This document shows positions 13,309-58,266 of a stretch of DNA of 64,000 nucleotides, one piece after another. Position numbers and translations under genes: made by a program. The DNA comes from Haliea sp. (GTDB lineage Bacteria > Pseudomonadota > Gammaproteobacteria > Pseudomonadales > Halieaceae): positions 21,979-85,978 of the forward strand of contig NZ_JAVKCQ010000019.1 of NCBI RefSeq assembly GCF_040222615.1. Direction: 5' to 3'. Positions within the stretch are counted from its first letter, which is position 1, and each line of letters starts with the position of its first letter. The notes beneath the pieces were generated by a model that was not told the DNA's origin, did not search any database, and saw only the letters and a program-made list of their open reading frames with translations.

Positions 13309-14592
13309 TCAGCCCAGGCGATCGCGAAGACTGTAGAATAGCATGCCCGCCACGAGTCCGGGCCAGCGCAACAGGGTGCCGCCGGGGAACTGGTGGGAGG
13401 GTACCCCCGCCATGATATCGAAGCGCTCGGCGCTGCCGCTGATGACCTCTGCCAGCAGCTTGCCGGCGAGGGTGGCGATGGGCACACCGTGGCCGGAATA
13501 GCCGTGGGCGTAGAATACCCGCGACGACAGGCGCCCAAAGTCCGGCATCCGGTTCATGGTGATGGCCAGCGTGCCGCCCCAGCCATAGTCGATGCGGGTG
13601 TTGGCCAGCTCGGGATAGATGCGCAGCATGTACTTGCGGACGAAACCCTTGATGTCGGCTGGAAAGCGACGGGTGTAGGACTCGCCGCCGCCAAACAGCA
13701 GGCGGTTGTCGGCGGACAGCTTCCAGTAGTTGACCACGAACAGGGTGTCGGTCATCGAGGTGTCGTCGCGGATCAGCTGCCGCGCCAGCGCCTCGGGCAG
13801 TGGTTCCGTAGCCAGCATGTAGTTGTTGATCGGCATGATTCTGCCGGCGGTGCGCGGTTCCAGCTTTTCCAGGTAGCCGTTGCAGGCTACCACCAGGTAA
13901 TCGCAGGTCACGGCGCCGTTACCGGTCTTGACGGTGACCTTGTCGCCCTCGCGGTAGCCGGTCACCCGGCTGCCCTCGTGCAGTTGTGCGCCCAGGTCCC
14001 GCGCCGCGCGCGCCAGCCCGAGGGCATAGTTGAGCGGGTGCAGGTGGCGCGCGCCAGCGTCGAGCGAGGCGCCGTGGAATCCCTGGCCGGAGGTCATGGT
14101 CGCCAGTTCCGCGCGGTCGACATAGCGGATCTGGTCGTAGCCATAAACGCTGTTCAGCTGCTCGACCTCCTCCCTCAGCTCCCGGGCATCGCCGGCTTTT
14201 GACGCCACGTGCAGATTGCCCTGCTTCAGCTCACAATCGATCCGGTGGCTGGCAATCAGTTCGCAAACAGTGTCCACGGCCTCCAGGCCGAGTTGCCAGA
14301 GCGCCTGCGCATGCTCCAGTCCCACCCACTTTTCCAGTTGCTGCTGGCCCGCACGCTGGCCGGTGCCAACGTGGCCGCCGTTGCGCCCGGACGCGCCCCA
14401 GCCGACCCTGTTTGCTTCCAGCAGGACGACGCTGTAGCCGCGCTGGCGCAGGTGGATGGCCGTGGAGAGCCCGGTGTAGCCGCCCCCCACAATGCAGACG
14501 TCAGCCTTGCTGGTGCCGGCCAGCGCCGGGAACTCCAGCTGCTGGTTGGCGGTGGCTGCGTACCAGGATTCGACGTGGGCTTGGTTTTCCAT
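13309..14592 (-). CDS. puuB: FAD-dependent oxidoreductase, gamma-glutamylputrescine oxidase-like (PuuB)
   Basis: SWYAATA N-terminus, GGGYTG, GASGRNGG, GYSGHGV. Divergent from a puuA-like gene. Start taken at MENQAH. Confidence 0.78.
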   Translation of the reverse strand: MENQAHVESWYAATANQQLEFPALAGTSKADVCIVGGGYTGLSTAIHLRQRGYSVVLLEANRVGWGASGRNGGHVGTGQRAGQQQLEKWVGLEHAQALWQLGLEAVDTVCELIASHRIDCELKQGNLHVASKAGDARELREEVEQLNSVYGYDQIRYVDRAELATMTSGQGFHGASLDAGARHLHPLNYALGLARAARDLGAQLHEGSRVTGYREGDKVTVKTGNGAVTCDYLVVACNGYLEKLEPRTAGRIMPINNYMLATEPLPEALARQLIRDDTSMTDTLFVVNYWKLSADNRLLFGGGESYTRRFPADIKGFVRKYMLRIYPELANTRIDYGWGGTLAITMNRMPDFGRLSSRVFYAHGYSGHGVPIATLAGKLLAEVISGSAERFDIMAGVPSHQFPGGTLLRWPGLVAGMLFYSLRDRLG

Positions 14593-45161: not shown

Positions 45162-45243
45162 GGCATCAGCTTATGCGGTATCAGGGTGGCGCACTATAGC
45201 GCATGCGCGTTGGCGGGGCACGAGCCGGCCCCCCCCGGGCGGC

Positions 45244-46146
45244 TCAGCGCCACAGGCGAGGAACCAGCACCGGCGTGTTCGCCTGGTAGGCCTGCCACTC
45301 AGGGTCGTGACCCCAGCGCCGCGCGGCCTTGCGCTCCAGCAGGGGCACGCCGCTGACCCTGGTCAACAGCAGGTAGACGAATAGGGGCGAGATCAGCGTC
45401 AGCCACTGCCATCCCGCCAGCGCCGGCGCCGCGAGCATGGCGATGCCACACCACAGCAGGATCTCGCCGAAGTAATTCGGATGCCGTGAGCGGGCCCAGA
45501 GCCCGCTGCTTATAAAACCCTCTCCGCCCTGGCGGCGCCGGAATACGCGTTTCTGGTGGTCCGCGGCGATCTCGATCGCGAAGCCGGCGACCCACAGCAG
45601 CAGCCCGAGGGCTTCCAGCCCGCCCGCCGGTCCCGCGCCGGTGCTGCTGATCGCCGCCAGCGCGCAGCCGGCGGTGATCAGGACCCACAGGCCCTGCAGG
45701 GTCCAGGTGAACAGGAACTTGCCGGCATGGGGCTTGATCTGGTCAAAGCGAGAATCATTGCCGTCCTTGAGTATCCGCAGGAACAGGAAACTGCCAAGGC
45801 GCAGGGCCCACAGGCTGATGCAGCCGGCCAGGAGCAGGCTGCGGGTATCCTCGGCACCGCTCAGTCCAACTGCCAGCCAGACCACCGCCAGGTAGGTGCA
45901 CGAGCCGGTCAGGTCGTAGAACTTTTCGGTTTGCAGCAGCCACGCCGGCACAAAGGCCAGCCACTGTATTATCAGCGCCAGCAGCGCGCACAGGGCAAAT
46001 ACTGGCCAACCGGCCCAGCGCGCGCCAGTGTGGCTTCCGGCGAGGGCGATACCCAGCGCCAGGGCGAGTACGATGGCCATGTGCAGCAGTGACTTTGTCG
46101 CAGCTCCGCCACGGGTTGCGGGATTTGGCGCCATTGCCTTCCTCAC
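45244..46146 (-). CDS. DUF1295 / steroid 5-alpha-reductase-like membrane protein
   Basis: E.FYDLTGS.TY, DSRFD.IK, ADHQK..F, GLW..SRHPNYFGE, SGVPLLE. Confidence 0.88.
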   Translation of the reverse strand: MRKAMAPNPATRGGAATKSLLHMAIVLALALGIALAGSHTGARWAGWPVFALCALLALIIQWLAFVPAWLLQTEKFYDLTGSCTYLAVVWLAVGLSGAEDTRSLLLAGCISLWALRLGSFLFLRILKDGNDSRFDQIKPHAGKFLFTWTLQGLWVLITAGCALAAISSTGAGPAGGLEALGLLLWVAGFAIEIAADHQKRVFRRRQGGEGFISSGLWARSRHPNYFGEILLWCGIAMLAAPALAGWQWLTLISPLFVYLLLTRVSGVPLLERKAARRWGHDPEWQAYQANTPVLVPRLWR

Positions 46147-46994
46147 CCCTTGCGCGCCGTCACCAGCCAGACAGCCCCGGGCAGGCGTATTTTTCCGGCG
46201 CTGAACCAGGGCGACATGGCCTCTGTGGCGGCGCTGTAAACGGCTTCCCGTAGAGTCGGGTCGCAGTTCTGCAGCAGGCGGCTTACCGGCCCCATGTTCA
46301 GCATGTCACGCGCTGTAGTACCGAGATCATCGTCACGCCCCCAGGCCATGGTCACCGCGTGTGAGCATATGTCGACATCATTGAACCCTGCTCCCGCCAG
46401 CACCGACCGGGTGTAGTCGGCATCGGCAAACGCGAATGGGCCCGGTGCATGGGGCGGGGGTGGCTCCGGCGCGGGCAGGTGCTGGAGTGCAGCCCTGAGC
46501 GGGAGCATCGCCCACAGGTTCTCCTGCAGCGGTTGCCAGCAGGAGAAAGCCAGCTTGGCCCCCGGCTCCAGTGCCTGGTACAGGTTGACGAATGCCGCCT
46601 TCGGTTCAGCAAAGAACATCACTCCGAAGCGGGAGAACAGCAGGTCGAAGCTGGCGGGCGCAAAGACATGGTTCGAAGCGTCCGCTTCGAGGAAATCGAC
46701 CCGTGTACCACTGGCGCCCGCTGCCCGGGCGCGCTGCCGGGCGACTGCCAGCAGCGGGGCGGAAATGTCCACGCCGAGGACAGTGGCCTGCGGCCCCAGG
46801 TGCTCTGCCAGCATCAGGGTTTCGCTGCCGCCGCCACAGCCTACATCCAGGACCCGGGTCGCGCCGCCGATATTGGCGTGCTTTAGCAGGTCCCCGGCGA
46901 TGGGTGCCAGCATCTCCGCCATCATCGCGTCATTATCCGCCCACTTTTGGCCGGCCTCCCCATTCCAGTATTCCATCTGCTCCGAGTTGTTCAT
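46143..46994 (-). CDS. Class I SAM-dependent methyltransferase
   Basis: EYWNG..G.KW, VLDVGCGGG, GVDIS, FSRFGVMFF..P, PGPFAFAD. Confidence 0.92.
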   Translation of the reverse strand: MNNSEQMEYWNGEAGQKWADNDAMMAEMLAPIAGDLLKHANIGGATRVLDVGCGGGSETLMLAEHLGPQATVLGVDISAPLLAVARQRARAAGASGTRVDFLEADASNHVFAPASFDLLFSRFGVMFFAEPKAAFVNLYQALEPGAKLAFSCWQPLQENLWAMLPLRAALQHLPAPEPPPPHAPGPFAFADADYTRSVLAGAGFNDVDICSHAVTMAWGRDDDLGTTARDMLNMGPVSRLLQNCDPTLREAVYSAATEAMSPWFSAGKIRLPGAVWLVTARKG

Positions 46995-47100
46995 GAACGT
47001 TCCCTGATCCTGTTGGCATCAGCAGGAAGCATACAACAGACAACACCGACCGTGTGGTCCGCGAACACGGCTTGTCGTTGCCCCGGTATTCGTTTCGGTT

Positions 47101-47129
47101 TTGACAAAAACATAAGAAAGTTCTAATGT
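47101..47129 (+). promoter_or_regulatory. sigma70 promoter with an overlapping palindromic operator
   Basis: TTGACA-17 bp-TAATGT. ACATAAGAA-AG-TTCTAATGT (47110-47129; 8/9 inverted match) covers the spacer and -10. Confidence 0.7.
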
Positions 47130-47168
47130 AATTTCATTGAGGCCGTGGAGCTTCCCCAAGGAGATGTT

Positions 47169-47372
47169 ATGACACTTGATCGCGCAGTGATGGCCTTTGC
47201 CGGCGTCATGATTTTAATCAGCCTCGTACTGGCCCAGATCCACAGCAGTTACTGGCTATGGTTTACCGCTTTTGTGGGAGCCAACCTCCTGCAAGCCGCA
47301 TTCACAGGCTTTTGCCCGGCTGCTGTACTGTTCAGGAAGCTTGGCATAAGGACAGGAACGGCATTTTCCTGA
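47169..47372 (+). CDS. DUF2892 / YgaP-like small membrane protein
   Basis: M..DRAV..FAG, FVG.NL.Q.AFTGFCPA..L..KLG. Confidence 0.88.
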   Translation: MTLDRAVMAFAGVMILISLVLAQIHSSYWLWFTAFVGANLLQAAFTGFCPAAVLFRKLGIRTGTAFS

Positions 47373-47382
47373 GGACATCATA

Positions 47383-48672
47383 ATGAAACAGATAGTCGTT
47401 CTGGGCGCGGGCATAGGCGGAATCGCCATGGCCTACGAATTGCGCCATGTGCTTGGCAAGCGCGCTGCCATTACCGTGGTGTCGGATACCGAATGGTTCC
47501 AGTTTGTCCCTTCCAACCCGTGGGTGTCGGTGGGCTGGCGCAAGCCGGAGGACATCAAGATCCACCTGCCCGAGGTAATGGCCAAGTACGATATCGCTTT
47601 CACTGCCTCCGGAGCCGCGCAGGTGCGTGCAGAGAAAAACCAGGTGCTGCTCGGCGACGGCAGCGAACTGGATTATGACTATCTGGTCATTGCCACCGGG
47701 CCAGAGCTGGCCTTCGACGAAATCGAGGGCCTGGGGCCGGAGGGTTTTACCTCATCCGTGTGCCACGTGGATCACGCCGCCCTGGCGGAGGAGAAATGGC
47801 GGCAGTTTTGCGCAGAACCTGGGCCCATGGTCGTCGGTGCGGTGCAGGGAGCATCCTGTTTTGGTCCGGCTTACGAGTATGCCCTGCTGGCCGCGACTGA
47901 CCTGCGCAAGAAGAAGATCCGCGACCAGGTGCCGATTACCTTCGTGACTTCCGAGCCCTATATCGGGCACCTCGGGCTGGGCGGCGTGGGAGATACCAAG
48001 TCACAGCTCGAGTCGCTGATGCGGGAGCGCGACGTCAAGTGGATAACCAATGCCAGGGTTGAGCGCATTACCGCCGACGCGGTGGAAGTGGTGGAAGTTG
48101 ACGATACCGGGGTGGAAAAGAAACGGCATACACTGCCCAGCAAGCACAACATGTTCATCCCCGGTTTCCGTGGGGTGAAATGTCTCCGCGATGCAGCAGG
48201 CGAGGGGTTCAAGAATTTGTGCAATCCCCGCGGCTTCGTGCTGGTGGACGAATACCAGTGCAATCCCACTTACCGCAATGTCTACGCCGTGGGTGTTTGC
48301 GTTGCCATTCCGCCGATCGAGCAGACGCCAGTAGCGGTGGGTGCCCCGAAAACCGGCTACATGATTGAGTCCATGGTGGCTGCGGTGGGCGCGAATATTC
48401 GCCACCAGATTGAGGGCAGGGAGCCCTCGGACAGGCCCACCCTGAACGCAGTGTGCCTGGCGGACTTCGGCGACAGCGGAGTGGCGTTTGTGGCCCTGCC
48501 GCAGTTCCCTCCCCGCAACCTGAACTGGTCCAGCGAGGGCTACTGGGTGCACCTTGCCAAGATCGGCTTCGAGAAATATTTCCTGCACAAGGTCCGTGCG
48601 GGCTCGGCAGAGCCCGGTTACGAGCGGATTGTCATGAAGGCGCTGGGGATTGAGCGCCTGAAAGGCAACTGA
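47383..48672 (+). CDS. sqr: Sulfide:quinone oxidoreductase (type I/SqrA-like)
   Basis: GAGIGG, FVPSNPW, SCFGPAYE (first Cys), GHLGLGG, KTGYMIESM, NAVCLADFG (second Cys), HLAKI.FEKYF. Confidence 0.88.
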   Translation: MKQIVVLGAGIGGIAMAYELRHVLGKRAAITVVSDTEWFQFVPSNPWVSVGWRKPEDIKIHLPEVMAKYDIAFTASGAAQVRAEKNQVLLGDGSELDYDYLVIATGPELAFDEIEGLGPEGFTSSVCHVDHAALAEEKWRQFCAEPGPMVVGAVQGASCFGPAYEYALLAATDLRKKKIRDQVPITFVTSEPYIGHLGLGGVGDTKSQLESLMRERDVKWITNARVERITADAVEVVEVDDTGVEKKRHTLPSKHNMFIPGFRGVKCLRDAAGEGFKNLCNPRGFVLVDEYQCNPTYRNVYAVGVCVAIPPIEQTPVAVGAPKTGYMIESMVAAVGANIRHQIEGREPSDRPTLNAVCLADFGDSGVAFVALPQFPPRNLNWSSEGYWVHLAKIGFEKYFLHKVRAGSAEPGYERIVMKALGIERLKGN

Positions 48673-51445
48673 CAGCCGGTGCGCCGGTATCCTCTGGAGC
48701 AGGGTCAACGGCCGTCAGTCCCAGCATGGATGCCTTGCTGACAGCCTGCACGCGGTTGCGGACATTCAGCTTGGCAAAGATATTCTTGAGGTGAAAGCGC
48801 ACGGTGTTCTCGGACAGGTCCAGGTCCCTGGCAATTACCTTGTTGGCAGCACCCAGGGTCAGCAGGGCCAGAACCTCTTGTTCACGCTTGCTGAGCAGGG
48901 GCTTGGTCGAGCCGCCGGTCGCTGGTGCCAGCAGCCGCTCCCTGATGGCGACAGCATGGTTCAGCAACCCCGGGTTTAGGTCCTCGCTGTGCTCCAGGTA
49001 CAGGGCGATGAGATTGTCGAGCGGACCCGCATCGTCAACCAGGGCGCGGACGAAACCGGTGCGCCGTGACAGTGCCAGGCCCCGTTCTGTGTGTTCTCGC
49101 GCCTGTTCTCTGTCGTCCAGCGCCAGGGCTGCCTGGGCCATCAACATTGCATAGCGTATTGAAGAGCGCAGGCGCCCCTGCTCCAGGGCCTGTGCCGAAA
49201 AATGCTCCAGCTCCGCGAGCGCCTCCCGGCTGCGTCCCTCTGCGAGGAGCAGGCGGCTGATGGCAAGCGCCGCAACATCGCGCTCGCGCCATGCCGCCTC
49301 CTTGCCGTCACCACTGCGGTAGGCCTCAAGGCTGATGCCGGAATTCGTCAACACCGCACGCGCTGCCCGGTGCTTGCCGGCTCGTACCAGGAGTTCGATG
49401 CGCTGGCACTGCAGCAGATCTTCCAGGCGCGCCAGGCGCTGCTGGTCGGCGTATTTCATTGCCCTGTCCAGCAAGCGCAGGGCCGGCTTCAGGCCTGAAC
49501 GCCGGTACTCGATGTTGCTGACCGTGCAGTAGCCGGCCAGGTAGATATCGAACCAGGCCTCTCGAGCCTCCAGCTCGCGGGGGAGCTGCCGCAGTACCAT
49601 GAGTGAGATTTCGTCGCGGTCCAGTTCGTCGAGCAACTCGAACAGCAGTACATGACCGATGAGCCTGAGGCCTTTGTCCTCGCTGAACTTGCGTCGTGCG
49701 ATGTCCAGCCCGACGCGGTAGAGCTCCTCCGCCCTGGCGGACTCGCCCTCGGCAAAGCTGGCGTCGCCGAGGTGGAAGTACAGGTAGCTTTCGCCATACA
49801 GGGAGCCTATTTCGCGAAAGTTGCGTATGGCCTCCCGGGCGAAGTGACGGGCACTGCGGAAATCACCCTGCTGTGTATGGACCACACACATGAGATTGTA
49901 GTGGAAGGCGCGTCGCTCCGGATCCTGCCGGTCGATCCGGGGTGTTGACTCCAGCAGGGCCTGGTAGCTGGTTTCCCGGATTCGGCGCCCGGCATAGATG
50001 GCCAGATAGGCGTCGATCTGTCTGAGCTCGTTAAGCAGGGTATCGGGTATCTCTGTCGCCGAGATGGCAGCATCGTCCCGGGCTAGCTGCTCCGCCTCGC
50101 GGAATGTCTGCAGGGCTCTGAATACCAGCCCGTCCTTGACCTCGATGATACTCTGCAGCAACAACAGCAACGGCGAGGTCCCAATGACCCGTGTGTCGAG
50201 CAGCCCCAGCGCCGTTCGAATCCGGGTAATGCCCTCGCGCAGCCAGAGGGAAATGGTCCCCATGGACTCGATAATGTCGATGGCGCTACCGGGGTTATCG
50301 GCGAGCACGCAGTGGCGTACCGCATTGACCAGGTCGGACTCGTGCGCATGCCAGCCCGCGATGCGGGCGTGCAAGTGTCGGAGGCGTGCCGGATCCTGAA
50401 TCTGTAGCCGCCGGTAAAGATGCTCCCGCAACAGCGGGTGTAGCTGAAAGATGTCACCGGGCCCGGATATTGGCCGTATCAGGCTGTGCAGGTGCTGGAG
50501 CCGGTGAATGCGTTGCAGGCTGTCATCGACCTCCAGCACGTGATTGGCCAATTGGCAATCGACTCTCTCCAGCGGTGCAACTGACATCAGAAATTGCCGG
50601 TCTGACTCCTCCAGACTTTCCAGGATCTGGTGGGCAAGGTAGGCCGACAAGGTGCCGGTATCCCGGCCCAGCTCCTGCAGCACCCGCTCGTGGTCGCGCT
50701 CGCTGGCGAGGGCGCTGCGCAGCATTTGTACTGCGACCGGCCAGCCACGGGTGCGGCGGTAGACTTCCTCTGCTGCGGCGGCAGGCAGCTGGTCCGAGAA
50801 AATCTCCTGGATTTCGGGCAGGGTGAACTGCAGTGCGGTGGGGTCAAGGCGCTGCACTTGCCCGTCGACCTCATGCCGGCTGACGTCTAGCTCGCTGTCA
50901 TCGCGGGTGGCGATACAAAGATGCAGGTTCCGGGGTGCGTAGCGTAACAGTGGCTGAATGATTGCCGAGATGGTCGCCGGCCTGAGCTTTTCGAAATCGT
51001 CGATGACCAGCAGAACGCGTCCGGGCCAGGCGTCGATGCTGTGCTGGATAAGACTGAGAATCTGGCGGGACGTCAGTTCTCCGCGGAAAGCGTTGCTGTC
51101 CTGGTAGGTGGGTTGCAGAACGCCGGCCCGGGACAGGCTGAAGGCGAGATAAGTCAGCAGCTGCAGATCATCGTTGTCATCTTCGTCGATCGCCAGCCAG
51201 CAGCAGGTTGCTGCGTTGTCTGGCAGTTGTCGCAACCAGTTGGCGATCAGCGTGCTTTTTCCATACCCCGCGGGAGCGCTGACAATGGTCGCCAGCTTTG
51301 ACAAGCCCTCGTTCAGTCGCAGCTCGAGACCCCGGCGGGCCAGTGCATCCAGCCGTTGGCTGGGCGGATAGACCTTGGCCACTGTCAGCCACGGCGGGAA
51401 GGCCGTTGCCGGGTGGGGGGTACCTTGTGTGGCATGTTCCTGCAT
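48632..51445 (-). CDS. MalT-like large ATP-binding LuxR-family regulator
   Basis: K..PP N-terminus, SAPAGYGKSTL, LVIDDF, GWPVA, helical sensor region, C-terminal LSKREQEVL...N..IA..L.LSENTVRFHLKNIFAKL. Confidence 0.92.
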   Translation of the reverse strand: MQEHATQGTPHPATAFPPWLTVAKVYPPSQRLDALARRGLELRLNEGLSKLATIVSAPAGYGKSTLIANWLRQLPDNAATCCWLAIDEDDNDDLQLLTYLAFSLSRAGVLQPTYQDSNAFRGELTSRQILSLIQHSIDAWPGRVLLVIDDFEKLRPATISAIIQPLLRYAPRNLHLCIATRDDSELDVSRHEVDGQVQRLDPTALQFTLPEIQEIFSDQLPAAAAEEVYRRTRGWPVAVQMLRSALASERDHERVLQELGRDTGTLSAYLAHQILESLEESDRQFLMSVAPLERVDCQLANHVLEVDDSLQRIHRLQHLHSLIRPISGPGDIFQLHPLLREHLYRRLQIQDPARLRHLHARIAGWHAHESDLVNAVRHCVLADNPGSAIDIIESMGTISLWLREGITRIRTALGLLDTRVIGTSPLLLLLQSIIEVKDGLVFRALQTFREAEQLARDDAAISATEIPDTLLNELRQIDAYLAIYAGRRIRETSYQALLESTPRIDRQDPERRAFHYNLMCVVHTQQGDFRSARHFAREAIRNFREIGSLYGESYLYFHLGDASFAEGESARAEELYRVGLDIARRKFSEDKGLRLIGHVLLFELLDELDRDEISLMVLRQLPRELEAREAWFDIYLAGYCTVSNIEYRRSGLKPALRLLDRAMKYADQQRLARLEDLLQCQRIELLVRAGKHRAARAVLTNSGISLEAYRSGDGKEAAWRERDVAALAISRLLLAEGRSREALAELEHFSAQALEQGRLRSSIRYAMLMAQAALALDDREQAREHTERGLALSRRTGFVRALVDDAGPLDNLIALYLEHSEDLNPGLLNHAVAIRERLLAPATGGSTKPLLSKREQEVLALLTLGAANKVIARDLDLSENTVRFHLKNIFAKLNVRNRVQAVSKASMLGLTAVDPAPEDTGAPAVSCLSGAQSPAPS

Positions 51446-51500
51446 GAGAGAGACTGTATAAGACTGGCGGCGAGAAATCGACGCGCACGCACCCTGATAT

Positions 51501-51520
51501 GCCTACCCGAACGGGTAGGC
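51501..51520. promoter_or_regulatory. Perfect 20-bp palindrome in the divergent promoter (candidate operator)
   Basis: GCCTACCCG-AA-CGGGTAGGC. Confidence 0.6.
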
Positions 51521-51643
51521 TCACTACGCTGCAGGAGATTATTGCCCCACCCGCGGACAACGACTTCCCACACCAGAAGCTGATTGTGAGCGGAGGTCGC
51601 TCTGGCTAGGGTAAGCCCAAGGCAGTCAGGGATACATAGCGCA

Positions 51644-53197
51644 ATGAGAATCGGAGTCGATGTCGGTGGGACGAATACGGACGCAGTGCTGGTGGATGGC
51701 CTGCGGGTGGTTGCCAGTTGCAAGCAGCCTACGACAGAGGATGTCAGCTCTGGTATCGAAGCCGCTCTGCGCACGGTAATGAGGACCGCCGCGGTCGGGG
51801 CGGAAGCCGTAACCTCGGTGATGATTGGCACCACCCATTTCACCAACGCCTTCGTGGCCCGCCAGTCACTGCTGCCGGTGGGTATTCTACGGGTAGCCCT
51901 GCCCGCTGCCAGGGGTATTCCGCCGCTGGTGGACTGGCCCGGGGATATTCGCCAGGCAATCGGTGGCCCCAGTTTTCAGGTGCGTGGTGGCGTGCAATAC
52001 GATGGCCGTGTGAACGCGGAGCTCGACGAAGATGCCGTGCGCGAGGCGGCCGGCCACTTTCGCAATGCGGGGATACAGACCGTGGCCATCTCTTCCCTGT
52101 TTTCGCCCATCAGTGCCGATATGGAACTGCGCGCAGCGGGCATCGTGCGGTCGGAGATGGGTGCGGAGGTGTCGATCACCCTGTCCCATACCATTGGCAG
52201 GATCGGACTGCTGGAGCGAGAGAACGCCACCGTCATGAACGCTTCGCTAGCCCGGTTGTCCCGCGAGGTTGTCCGTTCCTTTGGCGAAGCGATGCGCGCC
52301 CTGCAGCTGGATGCTCCTTTCTTTATCAGCCAGAACGACGGCACCCTGATGAGCGCGGATTTCGTCGAGCGCTACCCTGTGCTGACCTTTGCTTCAGGCC
52401 CGACCAACAGCATGCGCGGAGCCGCGCGGCTGGGTGGTCATGAAACCGCGATGGTGGCCGACATTGGCGGCACTACCACTGATTTTGGCTGGCTGGCGGG
52501 CGGCTTCCCGCGGGAATCCTCGGTATCTGTGGATGTCGGCGGCGTACGCACCAATTTCCGCATGCCCGATATTTACGCGTTAGGGCTGGGCGGGGGATCC
52601 CGCATCGTGGAGCAGGCCGGTGATATCGCCATTGGTCCGGGCTCGGTGGGTTACCGCCTGCTGGATGAAGCCCTGGTGTTTGGCGGGTCCACACTGACTG
52701 CGACGGACATTGCGGTCGCGGCAGGCTACGCCGAAATCGGCGACCGTGAACGTGTGGCACACCTTGATCCCGCCCTGGTGGAGCGCTGTGTCGCCCGCAT
52801 GCACGACATGGTGGCTGCCGGGGTTGACCGGATGAAAACCAGTGCCGAACCGGTGCCGTTGATCCTGGTGGGAGGCGGCGCGGTGCTGATTAACCGGGAT
52901 ATCCCCGGAACCTCCGAGGTCATCGTGCCGGAGCACGCCGGCGTCGCCAACGCCATCGGTGCATCAATTGCCCAGATAGGAGGTGAAACCGACAGGGTTT
53001 TCTCCTATGAGCAAAGCGGTCGCGACGAGGCATTGGCTACCGCGCGGGCGGAAGCTTGCGAGCGCGCTGTGGCCGCCGGTGCACGACCTGACAGTATCAA
53101 GGTTATCGACCTGGAGGAATTGCCGCTGGCTTATGTGCCCGGCAATGCTGTGCGGGTGAAGGTCAAGGTGGCCGGGGACCTGGCCATCGGTAGTTGA
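51644..53197 (+). CDS. Hydantoinase/oxoprolinase-family protein (HyuA-like subunit)
   Basis: RIGVDVGGTNTD, IGTTHFTNA, SGPTNS.RGA, DIGGTT.D, GLGGGS, VANAIGA. Confidence 0.9.
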   Translation: MRIGVDVGGTNTDAVLVDGLRVVASCKQPTTEDVSSGIEAALRTVMRTAAVGAEAVTSVMIGTTHFTNAFVARQSLLPVGILRVALPAARGIPPLVDWPGDIRQAIGGPSFQVRGGVQYDGRVNAELDEDAVREAAGHFRNAGIQTVAISSLFSPISADMELRAAGIVRSEMGAEVSITLSHTIGRIGLLERENATVMNASLARLSREVVRSFGEAMRALQLDAPFFISQNDGTLMSADFVERYPVLTFASGPTNSMRGAARLGGHETAMVADIGGTTTDFGWLAGGFPRESSVSVDVGGVRTNFRMPDIYALGLGGGSRIVEQAGDIAIGPGSVGYRLLDEALVFGGSTLTATDIAVAAGYAEIGDRERVAHLDPALVERCVARMHDMVAAGVDRMKTSAEPVPLILVGGGAVLINRDIPGTSEVIVPEHAGVANAIGASIAQIGGETDRVFSYEQSGRDEALATARAEACERAVAAGARPDSIKVIDLEELPLAYVPGNAVRVKVKVAGDLAIGS

Positions 53198-53232
53198 AAT
53201 CGCCAGAGCGCTACGGGAGCACACAAGCGAAC

Positions 53233-54318
53233 ATGAAAATCAGTCTGGAAGACCTGCCCTACATTGCCACTGGCGCTGCGTTCCTGGGGACCGGCGGCGG
53301 GGGTGACCCTTACATAGGCCGGATGCTGGCAACCAGTGCGATAGAGGAGTTCGGATCACCGGAGCTGGTTGGTGTGGAAAGCCTTGCGGACGATGCCAAT
53401 GTCTACACCATCGCGATGCTGGGGGCGCCCACGGTGCTGGTAGAGAAGGGTGCCTGTGGCGATGACATTGATCTCGCCCTCGCACGGCTGCAGGAATACA
53501 CCGGCCGGCCAGCGGATGCGGTTATCCCGATCGAAATTGGCGGGGTCAACTCCCTTGTTCCGGTGATGGCCGCCGCCCGCACCGGGTTGCCACTGGTGGA
53601 CGCCGACGGGATGGGTCGAGCCTTTCCGGAAATCCAGATGGTTACCTACAACGTGCACGGCGTTTCCTGTACTCCGCTGGTGGTGACCGACGAGCACCTG
53701 AACTCACTGGTGGTGAATACCGGCAGCGCCAAGCGCGCGGAGGATCTGGTGCGTGTGTGCGCGGTGGAAATGGGTTGCAGCGTCATGCTTTCCAGCTATC
53801 TCATGACCGGTCGCCAGGTCAAGGACAGTGCGGTTACCGGTACCATGACCCTGGCGCTGGAGATAGGTCGCGCCATCGCCGCGGGACGCAAGGCTGGAGA
53901 TCCGGTGGCGGCGCTGCTGTCGGCACTGCGCGCCACGCCTTATTACAATCACTGCAAGGTGATCTTCGACGGCAAGGTCAGTGACCTGCAGCGCGATACG
54001 CGGGGCGGGTTCTCGGTGGGTCTGTGCGACCTTGTGGCGCTGGACGGAAGCGGAGCCAGCTTGCAGCTGACGTTCCAGAATGAGCATCTGGTTGCCCGGC
54101 AGGGTGACGCCGTGCGGGCCATAGTGCCCGACCTGATCTGTGTGGTGGATCGCGAAACGGCCGAGCCGATCCCGGTTGAGGGGCTCAAGTACGGGCAGCG
54201 GGTGAAGGTGCTTGGTGTCAGTGCGCCTCCCATTCTCAGAACGCCGGCGGCACTGCAGGTCTTCGGGCCCGCTGCCTTCGGGCTGGACGACATTTTCCAG
54301 CCAATCGAATCATTGTAA
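53233..54318 (+). CDS. DUF917-family protein (thiohydantoin desulfurase-like)
   Basis: GA..LGTGGGGDP, GAPTV..EK, EIGG.NS..P, VDADGMGRAFPE.QM, QNE.L, PDLI..VD. Confidence 0.88.
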   Translation: MKISLEDLPYIATGAAFLGTGGGGDPYIGRMLATSAIEEFGSPELVGVESLADDANVYTIAMLGAPTVLVEKGACGDDIDLALARLQEYTGRPADAVIPIEIGGVNSLVPVMAAARTGLPLVDADGMGRAFPEIQMVTYNVHGVSCTPLVVTDEHLNSLVVNTGSAKRAEDLVRVCAVEMGCSVMLSSYLMTGRQVKDSAVTGTMTLALEIGRAIAAGRKAGDPVAALLSALRATPYYNHCKVIFDGKVSDLQRDTRGGFSVGLCDLVALDGSGASLQLTFQNEHLVARQGDAVRAIVPDLICVVDRETAEPIPVEGLKYGQRVKVLGVSAPPILRTPAALQVFGPAAFGLDDIFQPIESL

Positions 54319-54354
54319 AAAATCGAACCAACATCAACTCTCGGGGAGAACGAT

Positions 54355-56505
54355 ATGCAGGTCAATAGCAGGATGATCGGGGCGATACTCGCTGCCACTA
54401 CCGCCGGATTCCAATATCAGCTCGCGGCCCAGCCGGCTTCCGGCCTGCAGCTCGAGGAGGTCATTGTCACGGCGCAGAAGCGCGAGCAAAGTTTCAATGA
54501 GGTCGGGATTGCGGTTACCGCCCTGAGTGGCGATGAGATAAAAGCGCTGCGTCTCAACCAGCCGGTGGATATCGCGGCTCAGACACCCAATTTGCGCATT
54601 AATAACGTGGTCGCCAACTCCATTCCCAATGTCACGATCCGCGGTATCGGACTCAATGACTATGCGACCAACAACAATCCTGCGGCGGGTATCTATATCG
54701 ACGAGGTATACCTGGTGTCACCGGCCATGCTCAGCTTCCAGATGCATGACCTGGCCCGGGTTGAAGTCCTGAAAGGCCCGCAGGGAACCCTGTTCGGGCG
54801 CAACACCACCGCCGGTGCGGTCAATTTCATCGCCAACCGCCCGAGCGAGGAATTTACCGCGGGGGCAACGCTGGACTACGGCCGCTACGAACACGCTTCC
54901 GGCCAGGGCTTTGTCAGTGGTGAGTTGATGCCGGGGCTGGCGGGGCGTCTGTCGGTACAGCGAATCCGCCAGAGCGAGGGCCACCAGACCAATCGCGTCA
55001 CCGGCGAGGATGTGGGCAGGGTAGCCAGCACCGCCTGGCGCGCCCTGTTGCAGTGGCAGCCCACGGAATCCCTGGATATTCTCCTCAACGTCCACGGCGG
55101 CAAGGATGACTCGGACATCCACCTGGTGAAGATCGACAACCCGTTTTCGGCAGAGGACGACGGCGATCGCGATGTGTTCCGCTCCGGGTCGTCGGTGGCA
55201 ACCCTGCAGCAAATAGACAGCGAAGGGTTCTCCCTGACCGCCAACTGGGCCTTTGCCGACGCGCTCAGCCTGACCTCTATCAGCGCCTGGGAAGAACTGG
55301 ACCGCTTCCATGTGGAAGACCGTGACGCCACCAGCCTGGCCCAGCTCGACGGTTATTTCGATAACGCCGTGGAGCAGTTCTCCCAGGAACTCCGCCTCAC
55401 CTACCTCGGTGATGAACTGGTGTGGATAGCCGGCGCCTTCTACGGCAATGACGACGTCAAGACCCGGGACCGTTTTGATGCCGGCGACCTGCTGCCACTG
55501 CTGGGCCTGGATGGTTTCGCATCGCTGGGCAACGAATACCGCCAGGACTCCGACTCCATCGCCCTGTTCCTGCATACAGAGTGGCAGGCTACACCTGTGT
55601 GGCGCCTGACCGCCGGTCTGCGCTATACAGACGAGGAAAAGACCTTTGCCGATGCTTTCACTTACCTGATCGGCGACGGCATCGAGGCTCCCCTGTTCCC
55701 GTCAGTGCGCAATGAATACAGCAATGACGATGTATCCGGAAAGTTCGGGGTTGATTACACCGGGTTCGAGGATACGCTGCTCTACGCCAGCATATCGCGG
55801 GGATTCAAGTCCGGCGGATTCCAGGGCCAGCTGACCTTTAACCCGGCCGACTTGCAACCGTTCCAGGAGGAAAGCCTGCTGGCCTACGAGGCCGGAGCCA
55901 AACTGACCTTGCTGGATGGTTCGATGCAGCTGAACGCCTCCATTTTCTGCTACGACTATGAGGATATGCAATTCTACGGTGGCATCTTTGATTCGCCGGT
56001 CGGCACCCTGTTCGGGATTGCCAATGTCGGTGATTCGGAGGTTACGGGTGGTGAAATTGAACTGGCATGGCGACCCGTCCAGGGGTTGGACCTGCGGCTC
56101 GGCATGGGATTGCTGGATACCGAGATCACCAGCTCCGTCGTCGGCGGCGTTGTCGAGGGCAGTGAGCTGCCGAATTCCCCGGAGTTGAACCTCAATGGGG
56201 TACTGCGCTACCAGTGGCCCCTGTCGTCGGGCCTCTATGCCGATGCCATGGTGGATTTCAACTACCAGGATGACATGGCCTTCGATATCGTGCGCCAGCC
56301 GCTGGAGGCCCGGGAGGACAGTTATTGGCTGTGGAATGCGCGCGCGGGCATTGGTGCCGCATCCGGGGCGTGGACGCTGTCGCTCTGGGGCAAGAACCTG
56401 TCCGATGAGCGCTATCGCACCCAGGTGTTGTTTTCCAGCGTGGGTTTTGGCGAGTCCTGGGGCATGCCCCGGACTTATGGGGTCAGCCTGGACCTGAGCA
56501 TCTGA
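54355..56505 (+). CDS. TonB-dependent receptor
   Basis: Signal peptide, TonB box LEEVIVTAQKRE, IRGIG, EVLKGPQGTLFGRNT.AG, C-terminal PRTYGV. Confidence 0.95.
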   Translation: MQVNSRMIGAILAATTAGFQYQLAAQPASGLQLEEVIVTAQKREQSFNEVGIAVTALSGDEIKALRLNQPVDIAAQTPNLRINNVVANSIPNVTIRGIGLNDYATNNNPAAGIYIDEVYLVSPAMLSFQMHDLARVEVLKGPQGTLFGRNTTAGAVNFIANRPSEEFTAGATLDYGRYEHASGQGFVSGELMPGLAGRLSVQRIRQSEGHQTNRVTGEDVGRVASTAWRALLQWQPTESLDILLNVHGGKDDSDIHLVKIDNPFSAEDDGDRDVFRSGSSVATLQQIDSEGFSLTANWAFADALSLTSISAWEELDRFHVEDRDATSLAQLDGYFDNAVEQFSQELRLTYLGDELVWIAGAFYGNDDVKTRDRFDAGDLLPLLGLDGFASLGNEYRQDSDSIALFLHTEWQATPVWRLTAGLRYTDEEKTFADAFTYLIGDGIEAPLFPSVRNEYSNDDVSGKFGVDYTGFEDTLLYASISRGFKSGGFQGQLTFNPADLQPFQEESLLAYEAGAKLTLLDGSMQLNASIFCYDYEDMQFYGGIFDSPVGTLFGIANVGDSEVTGGEIELAWRPVQGLDLRLGMGLLDTEITSSVVGGVVEGSELPNSPELNLNGVLRYQWPLSSGLYADAMVDFNYQDDMAFDIVRQPLEAREDSYWLWNARAGIGAASGAWTLSLWGKNLSDERYRTQVLFSSVGFGESWGMPRTYGVSLDLSI

Positions 56506-56537
56506 TTCCCCGGACATCACCAAGCAGAGGCAGCGAT

Positions 56538-57290
56538 ATGAAATCAGTCATCCACATCATTACCCCGATTATCACAGAAGGTATCCGCAGTCTCGATGAT
56601 GTCCAGCCCTTCCTGCGTCAGGACCTGGAGGTCCGCCACAGCCTTATCGTGAACGGTCCCGCATCCATAGAGTGCTCGGTGGATGAGGCCCTCAGTATTC
56701 CGGGCATTCTCGAACAGGCGGTGGCCGCGGAGCGTGACGGTGCCTCGGCACTGATCATTGATTGCATGGGGGATCCCGGGCTGGAAGCCTGCCGGGAGCT
56801 GGTGTCGATTCCCGTGCTCGGTCCGGCACAAACCTGTATGCACTACGCCAGCATGCTGGGGCATCACTTTGCATTTATTACGGTCCTGGACCGGCTCAAG
56901 CCAATGATAGATGGTCTGGTTGCACGCTACGGGCTGCAGGCGAATTACGCCGGATTCGGTGCTGTCGATATTCCGGTGCTGGAAATCGAGCAGCGCCTCG
57001 ATGAGCTGTTGGAGCAACTGGTGGCCGCATCCCTGCACAGCGTGGAGAGTACCCGGGCCGGCGCCATTATTCTGGGTTGTACCGGTTTCTTCGGATGTGC
57101 CGAGGCCATCGCAGAGCGGCTCGCTGCGGCGGGCTATGCAGTGCCGGTGCTGGACCCGATTCCGCTGACCCTGCATGCAGCGGATGTCCTGGTGAAGACC
57201 GGTCTGAGCCACAGCAAGTACATCTATCCCGCTCCCAGGCGCAAGCCCCTGGCGGGCTACGCATTGCCGGGTGCGTACGATACCGTTTGA
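56538..57290 (+). CDS. Asp/Glu/hydantoin racemase-family protein
   Basis: GPASIE, IIDCMGDPGL..CRE...IPV.GP, ILGCTG (two catalytic Cys), VPV.DP. Confidence 0.85.
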   Translation: MKSVIHIITPIITEGIRSLDDVQPFLRQDLEVRHSLIVNGPASIECSVDEALSIPGILEQAVAAERDGASALIIDCMGDPGLEACRELVSIPVLGPAQTCMHYASMLGHHFAFITVLDRLKPMIDGLVARYGLQANYAGFGAVDIPVLEIEQRLDELLEQLVAASLHSVESTRAGAIILGCTGFFGCAEAIAERLAAAGYAVPVLDPIPLTLHAADVLVKTGLSHSKYIYPAPRRKPLAGYALPGAYDTV

Positions 57291-57299
57291 GCAAGAGTG

Positions 57300-57359
57300 G
57301 CCGGGAGCTAGTACCCGGGTGCGGTTGCCCCCGGCTACTAGTCGCCTGGCATCTTTTTT
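57300..57359 (+). terminator. Long-hairpin terminator closing the hydantoinase operon
   Basis: CCGGG..CTAGTA.CCGGG / CCCGG.TACTAG...CCTGG followed by CATCTTTTTT. Confidence 0.6.
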
Positions 57360-57411
57360 GTTGCGCGGCGCTCGACGATAATATGCGGTCACTCTTTATC
57401 GGAGCGCCACG

Positions 57412-58266
57412 ATGAACAACGCTGACCAGCCGCAGGGCAATGCTTTTCAGGGCAAGGTAGTCTGGATTACCGGAGCCTCGGGCGGGATTGGCGCCGCCCT
57501 GGCCAGGCATCTCGCTGCACGCGGTGCCCGCCTGGTGCTTTCCGCCCGGCGCGCGGAGGCCCTGGAAACCGTAAAAGCTGACTGCGTCGGAGCCGGGGTG
57601 TCAGCGGAGTCGGTGCTGGTACTGCCACTGGATGTGGCGGCGACCAACACCATGCCGGCGGCGGTGGAGGCGGTGCTGGCACACTTCGGCCACATAGACC
57701 TGCTGGTCAATAATGCCGGCATATCCCAGCGTTCCCTGTGCCTGGAAACAGAGCTGGACGTCTACCGCCAGTTGTTCGAGGTGGATGTCATTGGCCAGAT
57801 CGCCCTCACCAAGCAGGTGTTGCCGCACATGGTCGCCCGTGGCAGTGGCCATGTGGCGGTGACCGCGAGTGTGGCGGGCAAGGTGGGTGTACCCCTGCGT
57901 ACTGGATATTGCGCCGCCAAACACGCAGTAATGGGTTTCTTTGACGCCCTGCGCTCGGAGGTGGCACATCTGGGGGTTCGCGTCACCACCATTGTGCCCG
58001 GCTTTATCCGCACCGATATCGCCCGCAACGCCCTCACGGGAACCGGGGCGCCGATGGGGGCAGCGGACGAGGATATTGAGGGCGGCATGGATGTCGACGA
58101 GTGTGCCGCCGCCATCCTTGGGGGTCTCGCCCTGGGCACCGAGGAGATCGATGTTGGCAAGGGCGCGGAAATGGATCTGCTGTCGCTCAAGCGCAGTGAT
58201 CCTGTCGGCACCTTTCGGCTGATGGAGGCAATGGCCGCGGAAGTGTTTGCCAGGCGCCAGTCCTGA
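57412..58266 (+). CDS. Short-chain dehydrogenase/reductase
   Basis: WITGASGGIG, NNAG, YCAAK (YxxxK), PGFIRT. Confidence 0.93.
   Translation: MNNADQPQGNAFQGKVVWITGASGGIGAALARHLAARGARLVLSARRAEALETVKADCVGAGVSAESVLVLPLDVAATNTMPAAVEAVLAHFGHIDLLVNNAGISQRSLCLETELDVYRQLFEVDVIGQIALTKQVLPHMVARGSGHVAVTASVAGKVGVPLRTGYCAAKHAVMGFFDALRSEVAHLGVRVTTIVPGFIRTDIARNALTGTGAPMGAADEDIEGGMDVDECAAAILGGLALGTEEIDVGKGAEMDLLSLKRSDPVGTFRLMEAMAAEVFARRQS

Follow-up and report, generated by a model that had tools for sequence, protein, structure and literature searches.

A stretch of 64,000 nucleotides (nt) from Haliea sp. (Halieaceae), called the window in the following and providing all coordinates, carries five genes that encode a MalT-like regulator, a short HyuA-like ATPase, a DUF917 protein, a TonB-dependent outer-membrane receptor and a two-cysteine racemase. 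This module probably represents a self-contained and inducible system for the uptake and the ATP-dependent ring processing of a small chiral cyclic amide or ureide, with a compound resembling a 5-substituted hydantoin as the most probable candidate. The same five genes were found together in about 65 further proteobacterial loci, which were gathered by scans with the DUF917 protein and with the receptor, and the arrangement goes far beyond chance. The nearest public contigs are Haliea metagenome-assembled genomes (MAGs), and public annotation of the module genes supplies generic names only.

Composition and conservation of the module

The module occurs in Haliea, Pseudohaliea, Pseudohongiella, Woeseiaceae, Steroidobacteraceae, Ca. 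Azophilus, a Sphingomonadales MAG and about 50 metagenome contigs. The order of the genes and the orientation of the regulator gene vary among these loci, and the gene content is constant. De novo clustering of the open reading frames (ORFs) from the 51 loci of at least 9 kb revealed that only the five core genes recur, each in 47–50 loci (the regulator in 48, the racemase in 47). Next in frequency are clusters from up to 35 loci, whose coordinates place them on the opposite strand inside the core genes and which probably represent shadow ORFs; with these set aside, every non-core cluster is restricted to at most seven of the 51 loci. As the ORFs of the related loci were called mechanically, small or unusual genes may be missed. 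The proteobacterial DUF917 proteins form one supported clade (96/94), which is sister to one paralog of an actinobacterial cluster, and this phylogeny suggests that the five-gene module has a single origin. Within the genus the module is accessory, being present in 5 of 14 congeners at 84–99% identity of the DUF917 cluster.

In the window, the regulator gene (48632–51445, minus strand; 937 amino acids) is divergent from hyuA with a spacer of 198 base pairs (bp). The other four genes share the plus strand, i.e., hyuA (51644–53197), the gene for the DUF917 or S-Me-THD-like protein (53194–54318), the receptor gene (54355–56505) and the gene for the Asp/Glu/hydantoin racemase (56538–57290), with a 4-nt overlap followed by gaps of 36 nt and 32 nt. 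The start of the DUF917 gene is ambiguous: a TTG at 53194 creates the 4-nt overlap with the hyuA stop, and an ATG at 53233 would leave a gap of 35 nt; residues 1–12 of the longer form are of low confidence in the AlphaFold2 (AF2) model and unaligned in distant orthologs. After the racemase gene, a predicted intrinsic terminator on the same strand (about 57300–57363) closes the operon. It consists of a long GC-rich hairpin (about 57300–57350) followed by CUUUUUUGUUG, with the U-run reaching to about 57363. A simple terminator scan overlooked this hairpin; it was picked up by a folding test, in which its z-score was −3.2 and none of 200 shuffled sequences folded equally well. The SDR gene 3′ of the terminator (57412–58266, plus strand) is not a member of the module; homology to the closest relative, the locus L001, stops at 57350 and the SDR gene is not found there. 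Rfam elements or riboswitches were not found in the region. The genes, their coordinates and their conservation therefore confirm what the original prediction had read from the window, namely one operon combining uptake, racemase and ring enzyme with a divergent MalT-like activator and a terminator.

The regulator and its candidate operator

The regulator possesses the architecture of the MalT-like STAND proteins of the LAL type, with an N-terminal nucleoside triphosphatase (NTPase) domain (AAA_16), a MalT-type TPR sensor (TPR_MalT) and a C-terminal LuxR-type helix-turn-helix (HTH; GerE), as assigned with Pfam and NCBIfam. It scores 248 bits against the MalT equivalog model, below the cut-off of 537, and thus is a member of the family and not MalT itself. 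The spacer to hyuA contains a 16-bp palindrome, CTACCCGAACGGGTAG, at 51503–51518, lying upstream of both genes, by 141 nt for hyuA and by 58 nt for the regulator gene; the 4.09-Mb genome contains no second exact copy. Of 41 distinct regions upstream of hyuA, 23 contain the general form CTACY-N6-RGTAG without mismatch, in most cases between −117 and −146, compared to a background expectation of 0.0036 per 200 nt, and most of the remaining regions contain one-mismatch or direct-repeat versions. The element is present once per locus at the same distance to hyuA from Haliea to Pseudohongiella, Steroidobacteraceae and the Sphingomonadales MAG, whereas between distant loci, L004 for example, the surrounding spacer is visibly divergent. 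In genomes richer in AT, the element reads CTACT-N6-AGTAG and is often followed after about 45 nt by another, tighter palindrome. From this conservation we infer that the palindrome is the binding site of the LuxR-type HTH of the regulator.

A genome-wide search resulted in one- and two-mismatch copies of the operator at chance level only, one of them inside infC, so that the regulon is apparently restricted to the operon. As a side observation, a one-mismatch copy, CTACCCGATCCGGTAG, is located at position 16442 of contig C81, about 190 nt upstream of a gene for an exported amidohydrolase-like lipoprotein of 580 amino acids, which by eye resembles D-aminoacylases; one such match is expected by chance.

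The short HyuA/DUF917 pair

The HyuA-like protein belongs to the ASKHA ATPases and comprises the domains Hydant_A_N and Hydantoinase_A within only 517 amino acids. It reaches 81.5 bits to the N-methylhydantoinase structure 7hk5 over residues 2–361 and is nearest to the A subunits of N-methylhydantoinase, 5-oxoprolinase and caprolactamase. The motifs DVGGTNTD, DIGGTTTD and GGGA are readable in its sequence. A HyuB partner for this short HyuA is missing from the cluster, and within the module it is never coupled to HyuB. Instead, an ASKHA protein of about 520 amino acids directly beside DUF917 was observed in nearly all of about 145 loci inspected, and DUF917 is the presumed catalytic partner of the short HyuA. 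Elsewhere in the same genome, three canonical HyuA/HyuB pairs are encoded (contigs C24, C178 and C183). In a gammaproteobacterial MAG (L008, 14101–19172), the module is followed by genes for a zinc alcohol dehydrogenase, HyuB, an aminotransferase and a full-length HyuA, indicating that two hydantoinase-type systems stand side by side in this locus.

The DUF917 protein contains the Pfam domains PF06032 and PF20906 (S-Me-THD_N/C) above the gathering score, with 183.7 and 200.4 bits. Its AF2 model, with a predicted local distance difference test (pLDDT) value of 86.9, matches the entry 2o3i at a template modeling (TM) score of 0.8, which was the sole match in a fold search of the PDB. HyuA, DUF917 and the racemase are devoid of signal peptides, which suggests that all three are cytoplasmic.

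The original prediction assigned a different chemistry to this protein: the receptor would import a thiohydantoin or another thione, DUF917 would desulfurize it under release of H2S, and the neighboring sulfide:quinone oxidoreductase (SQR) would oxidize the sulfide. In favor of this, characterized members of the DUF917 superfamily are named thiohydantoin or S-methyl-thiohydantoin desulfurases and the window protein can be aligned with them from end to end; this role is taken from the Pfam and NCBIfam names only, as literature searches for ErtC, DUF917 and thiohydantoin desulfurase yielded no enzyme paper and did not confirm that ErtC, from the ergothioneine pathway of Burkholderia sp. HME13, is a DUF917 protein. 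However, the window protein scores 98.7 bits against the thiohydantoin desulfurase model NF058529 and 108.5 bits against the S-methyl model NF058532, for which the cut-offs are 440 and 450. Six other DUF917 proteins, three of them actinobacterial paralogs from one operon, score 41–124 bits against the same models, showing that the values of the window protein correspond to the baseline of the superfamily. Moreover, none of 301 gammaproteobacterial genomes searched encodes a true desulfurase, and the de novo clustering of the 51 long loci revealed no sulfur-related gene conserved with the module. The proposal of a sulfur heterocycle as substrate is therefore not sustained by these comparisons. 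As to ergothioneine, the absence of an ergothionase and a thiourocanate hydratase, noted earlier for the window, extends to the whole genome (99.6% complete), which contains no gene of PF00221 (aromatic ammonia-lyases, the ergothionase family) or PF01175 (urocanase). The ergothioneine route was rejected for this reason.

Receptor, racemase and transport

In the receptor, Pfam recognizes plug and barrel, and the sequence also shows a signal peptide and the TonB box LEEVIVTA. All of its homologs with at least 46% identity are encoded in this cluster and none of those with at most 37% identity, and on this distribution the receptor is judged to be dedicated to the module, in agreement with the earlier view of it as a module part. 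It has no characterized close relative; the best PDB match is FyuA (91 bits) and the best family match is TIGR01783 (133 bits). As both are siderophore receptors, a metal chelate was considered as substrate, i.e., a compound of siderophore type that contains a cyclic amide or a hydantoin-like ring, is imported by the receptor and is opened by the enzymes so that the metal is released. Yet both matches fall far short of the family cut-offs. Conservation with the module was seen neither for a periplasmic binding protein or an ABC transporter nor for a reductase or Fur-type control, and control is assigned to a MalT-like activator with its own operator. Such a substrate is accordingly highly improbable, the least probable of the classes considered here.

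For the passage through the inner membrane, two metagenomic variants are informative. An NCS1 permease gene is located directly downstream of the receptor gene in L183 (4530–5741) and 3.7 kb downstream of it in L181 (14758–16080), which suggests that receptor and NCS1 permease act as an import pair across both membranes. The single NCS1 gene of the Haliea genome itself is situated elsewhere, beside the HyuA/HyuB pair on contig C24. That NCS1 permeases are the usual transporters of such clusters elsewhere, as had been remarked, holds for Actinobacteria, where the clusters read NCS1, HyuA, two to three DUF917 paralogs and PucR.

A side observation concerns the nearest paralogous receptor clade (33–37% identity; L217–L237, L239 and L248): in 12–14 of its 23 loci, the receptor gene is accompanied by a TetR-like regulator gene and a gene for a PF00144 serine hydrolase of the beta-lactamase family, and in six further loci its place is taken by a second PF00144 gene family. 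The arrangement appears to represent one more uncharacterized module of a receptor plus an amidase.

The racemase matches PF01177 with 127 bits and reaches 103 bits to the allantoin racemase of Klebsiella pneumoniae (3qvj) and 76 bits to 5lfd. Its residues C76 (IIDCMGDPG) and C181 (ILGCTGF) align with the positions at which the PDB entries 3qvj and 3qvk differ by Cys/Ser exchange; the two cysteines, recognized already in the first reading of the window, thus occupy the catalytic positions of the hydantoin/allantoin racemases in the PF01177 branch. There was no match to an NCBIfam equivalog, and the enzyme is probably of the hydantoin/allantoin type.

Since, among solved structures, the racemase is best matched by allantoin racemases, and NCS1 and PucR-type genes accompany the actinobacterial version, the purine ureide allantoin might be the substrate, with the racemase acting on allantoin and HyuA/DUF917 serving as a non-canonical allantoinase. 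Against this stand the absence of allantoicase (PF03561) from the Haliea genome and the 14 congeners, a best score for allantoate amidohydrolase (AllC) of 233 bits compared to a cut-off of 598, and the accessory nature of the module within the genus. Without allantoicase and with no AllC above the cut-off, allantoate would have no onward route, and this substrate is regarded as very unlikely.

The neighboring sqr gene

The regulator gene is adjoined by sqr (47383–48672, plus strand), the product of which aligns over its full length with the SQR of Acidithiobacillus ferrooxidans (3sz0; 466 bits), including the cysteines C127, C159 and C358, and is of type I. The two genes are convergent and their 3′ ends overlap by 41 bp (48632–48672), exactly as described in the original prediction. 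This functional-looking sqr abutting the regulator gene was the second argument for a pathway in which sulfide is released and oxidized. Co-occurrence of sqr with the cluster was examined in both directions. In 40 related genomes (14 congeners, 10 other Halieaceae and 16 of the same order), sqr was not found apart from one distant match of 38%, and the genomes lacking it include the five congeners that carry the cluster. Similarly, sqr is missing from all of the about 65 other cluster loci, and not one of 80 sqr loci has cluster genes within 5 kb. The nearest relatives of the window SQR are 58–70% identical and stem from Beijerinckiaceae, Methylococcaceae, Nitrosomonas and others, with the closest (at most 70%) in Beijerinckiaceae and Methylococcaceae. 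Lentisalinibacter sediminis possesses both sqr and the cluster, which are located on separate scaffolds.

The structure of the region agrees with this. In two sister Haliea genomes (L002 and L011, 80–83% identical at the nucleotide level), the alignment to the window breaks off after 47377 and resumes at 48709, with no counterpart of 47378–48708. The TARA contig L171 has the same arrangement, keeping the gene for a small YgaP-like transmembrane protein without sqr; in all three loci, which have no sqr, this protein is 88–90% identical to that of the window (PF11127/DUF2892, Pfam 52.9 bits; 67 amino acids; 47169–47372, plus strand). The segment treated in the original prediction begins with this gene, although it was not named there. 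L001, with 92–94% identity, lacks the window segment 45220–48621 comprising the genes for a DUF1295 protein (45244–46146, minus strand), an S-adenosylmethionine (SAM) methyltransferase (46143–46994, minus strand), the YgaP-like protein and SQR. L001 retains the last 51 nt of sqr, still reading ERIVMKALGIGRLKGN up to the stop and now, on the antisense strand, encoding the C-terminal tail of the regulator, which shows that an ancestral sqr was lost there by deletion. Compared to L001, L002, L011 and L171, the region 45220–48708 between methyltransferase and regulator is a hotspot of insertions and deletions (indels). Past the HTH, the tail of the regulator is not conserved (it differs in L002, L011 and L004), and in the window and in L001 it is the antisense of the sqr 3′ end. 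The 41-bp overlap thus arose as a side effect of an indel junction and is not a coupling device.

Furthermore, sqr has a partner gene of its own. Of the 80 sqr loci, 66 have a YgaP-like transmembrane gene beside sqr in the same orientation, across many proteobacterial lineages, and in the window this gene ends 10 nt before sqr, indicating that the two form a unit. It seems to be a conserved sulfide unit of two genes, in which the YgaP-like gene usually directly precedes or follows sqr. In the window, the pair is best explained as a separate sulfide-detoxification unit, which lies beside the regulator gene in this lineage only, with sqr as a strain-specific neighbor of the module. Synteny, the co-occurrence data from both directions and the structure of the indels all led to rejection of a coupling of SQR to the module. 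The lack of synteny corresponds to one half of what the original prediction itself had named as refuting the link, and the claim that SQR disposes of sulfide from the pathway is contradicted by the comparative evidence. Taken together with the desulfurase scores, a pathway for a thiohydantoin or thione with sulfide oxidation is very improbable. This negative result matters, as adjacency and 3′ overlap had pointed to a sulfur pathway for which comparative genomics provides no support.

Proposed function and substrate

The following sequence of events is proposed for the module. The MalT-like STAND regulator would sense the compound or a derivative of it and activate the divergent promoter via CTACY-N6-RGTAG. 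The dedicated receptor would carry the compound through the outer membrane, and an unlinked inner-membrane carrier, or the NCS1 permease in some variants, would deliver it to the cytoplasm. The compound itself would have a racemizable stereocenter beside a ring carbonyl, as in 5-substituted hydantoins, and the two-cysteine racemase could interconvert the enantiomers at this acidic ring carbon. The short HyuA might activate the ring with ATP, and DUF917, taking the position of HyuB, might perform hydrolytic or substitution chemistry, by analogy to the displacement at C2 for which the desulfurases of the superfamily are named.

A hydantoin-like ureide or imide is the tentative assignment of the substrate, short of an even chance, and several observations weigh against it. 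To our knowledge, neither substrate, product nor activity has been established for any HyuA-paired DUF917. The fold search gave no mechanistic lead, as 2o3i is an uncharacterized structural-genomics entry. In the 51 long loci, the module is accompanied by no conserved inner-membrane transporter, carbamoylase or further downstream enzyme, and a small hydantoin has no obvious need for a TonB receptor. Finally, M19 dipeptidases are encoded beside the module in three loci and point to a peptide-derived ring rather than to a hydantoin.

The last point leads to cyclic dipeptides (2,5-diketopiperazines) or peptide-derived lactams, for which the racemase would epimerize the alpha-carbon, HyuA/DUF917 would open the ring with ATP and unlinked dipeptidases would complete the degradation. 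The dipeptidase genes are located in L004 (16513–20185), in L007 and L175 (L007: 14128–15597) and in L020 (about 13618–14367); those of L004 and L007 encode proteins of only 25% identity and may have been recruited independently. L004 additionally carries a gene of the D-amino-acid-oxidase family (DAO), and the nearest paralogous receptor clade is linked to the PF00144 genes for serine amidases of the beta-lactamase family. A survey of cyclodipeptide-oxidase clusters furthermore reported DUF917, hydantoin-racemase and AroM genes to be enriched around them (bioRxiv 10.1101/2023.09.25.559410), an association that would fit this type of ring. However, only 3 of about 150 loci contain peptidases, which do not belong to the conserved core, the linked carriers are NCS1 permeases (known for nucleobases and hydantoins) rather than transporters of peptides, the regulator of the actinobacterial version is of the PucR type, and the racemase is nearest to allantoin and hydantoin racemases. 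A cyclic dipeptide or lactam is therefore considered unlikely, less so than allantoin, a metal chelate or a thione, and what is left after these named classes falls to something else. In L004, the M19 dipeptidase is accompanied by a DUF819 membrane protein, which is a weak hint at a peptide substrate.

With a hydantoin-like compound as the working assignment, it is conceivable, if somewhat below even odds, that the short HyuA together with DUF917 constitutes a distinct, uncharacterized class of ATP-dependent ring-processing enzymes, and that the five-gene version is a dedicated, TonB-dependent high-affinity route for scavenging one particular hydantoin-like compound or cyclic amide from marine dissolved organic nitrogen (DON). 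The short HyuA/DUF917 pair is widespread, and the substrate of this variant would assign the function of the pair. The module represents its most tractable form, with exactly five genes, an exclusive receptor, a putative ligand-sensing activator and a defined candidate operator, and it is present in cultivable marine bacteria such as Lentisalinibacter sediminis C23. If the proposal is true, the regulator and CTACY-N6-RGTAG could serve as a biosensor to identify the compound that is scavenged.

Comparison with known systems

Several components of the locus can be related to characterized proteins. The regulator shares with E. coli MalT the order of the domains, i.e., NTPase, MalT-type TPR sensor and LuxR HTH, whereas the proposed operator is a 16-bp palindrome instead of MalT boxes. 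The neighboring sqr, not a part of the module, differs from the SQR of A. ferrooxidans (3sz0) in its pairing with the YgaP-like transmembrane gene. With the thiohydantoin desulfurases (NF058529 and NF058532), DUF917 has the two-domain superfamily and the alignability over the full length in common; in contrast, its scores are about a quarter of the cut-offs, it is paired with an ATPase, and the upstream enzymes of ergothioneine catabolism are missing from the genome.

Compared to the HyuA/HyuB enzymes, i.e., N-methylhydantoinase (7hk5 and 9h03), 5-oxoprolinase (6yra), caprolactamase and the acetone and acetophenone carboxylases, the N-terminal domain and the ASKHA ATPase domain are common to both. 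However, the HyuA described here has 517 and not about 690 amino acids, and DUF917 stands in the place of HyuB. The closest relatives of the pair are found in the uncharacterized actinobacterial clusters of NCS1, HyuA, DUF917 and PucR genes, with identities of 52–57% for HyuA and 45–49% for DUF917 and with a sister DUF917 clade. These differ from the module in having several DUF917 paralogs and a PucR instead of a MalT-like regulator, and they contain neither a racemase nor a TonB receptor.

Classical hyu clusters encode the NCS1 permease Mhp1, the racemase HyuE, a hydantoinase and an N-carbamoyl-amino-acid amidohydrolase. As in these clusters, a transporter, a two-cysteine racemase and a ring enzyme are combined here under one regulator, with an NCS1 permease in some variants. 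In contrast, the ring enzyme would be the short HyuA with DUF917 and not a hydantoinase of the dihydropyrimidinase type or a HyuA/HyuB enzyme, the module does not comprise a carbamoylase, uptake is assigned to a dedicated TonB receptor, and the regulator is a MalT-like STAND protein. Judged by its gene content, the module probably works in the manner of a hyu-type cluster for uptake, racemization and ring opening, and it is a member of no characterized system.

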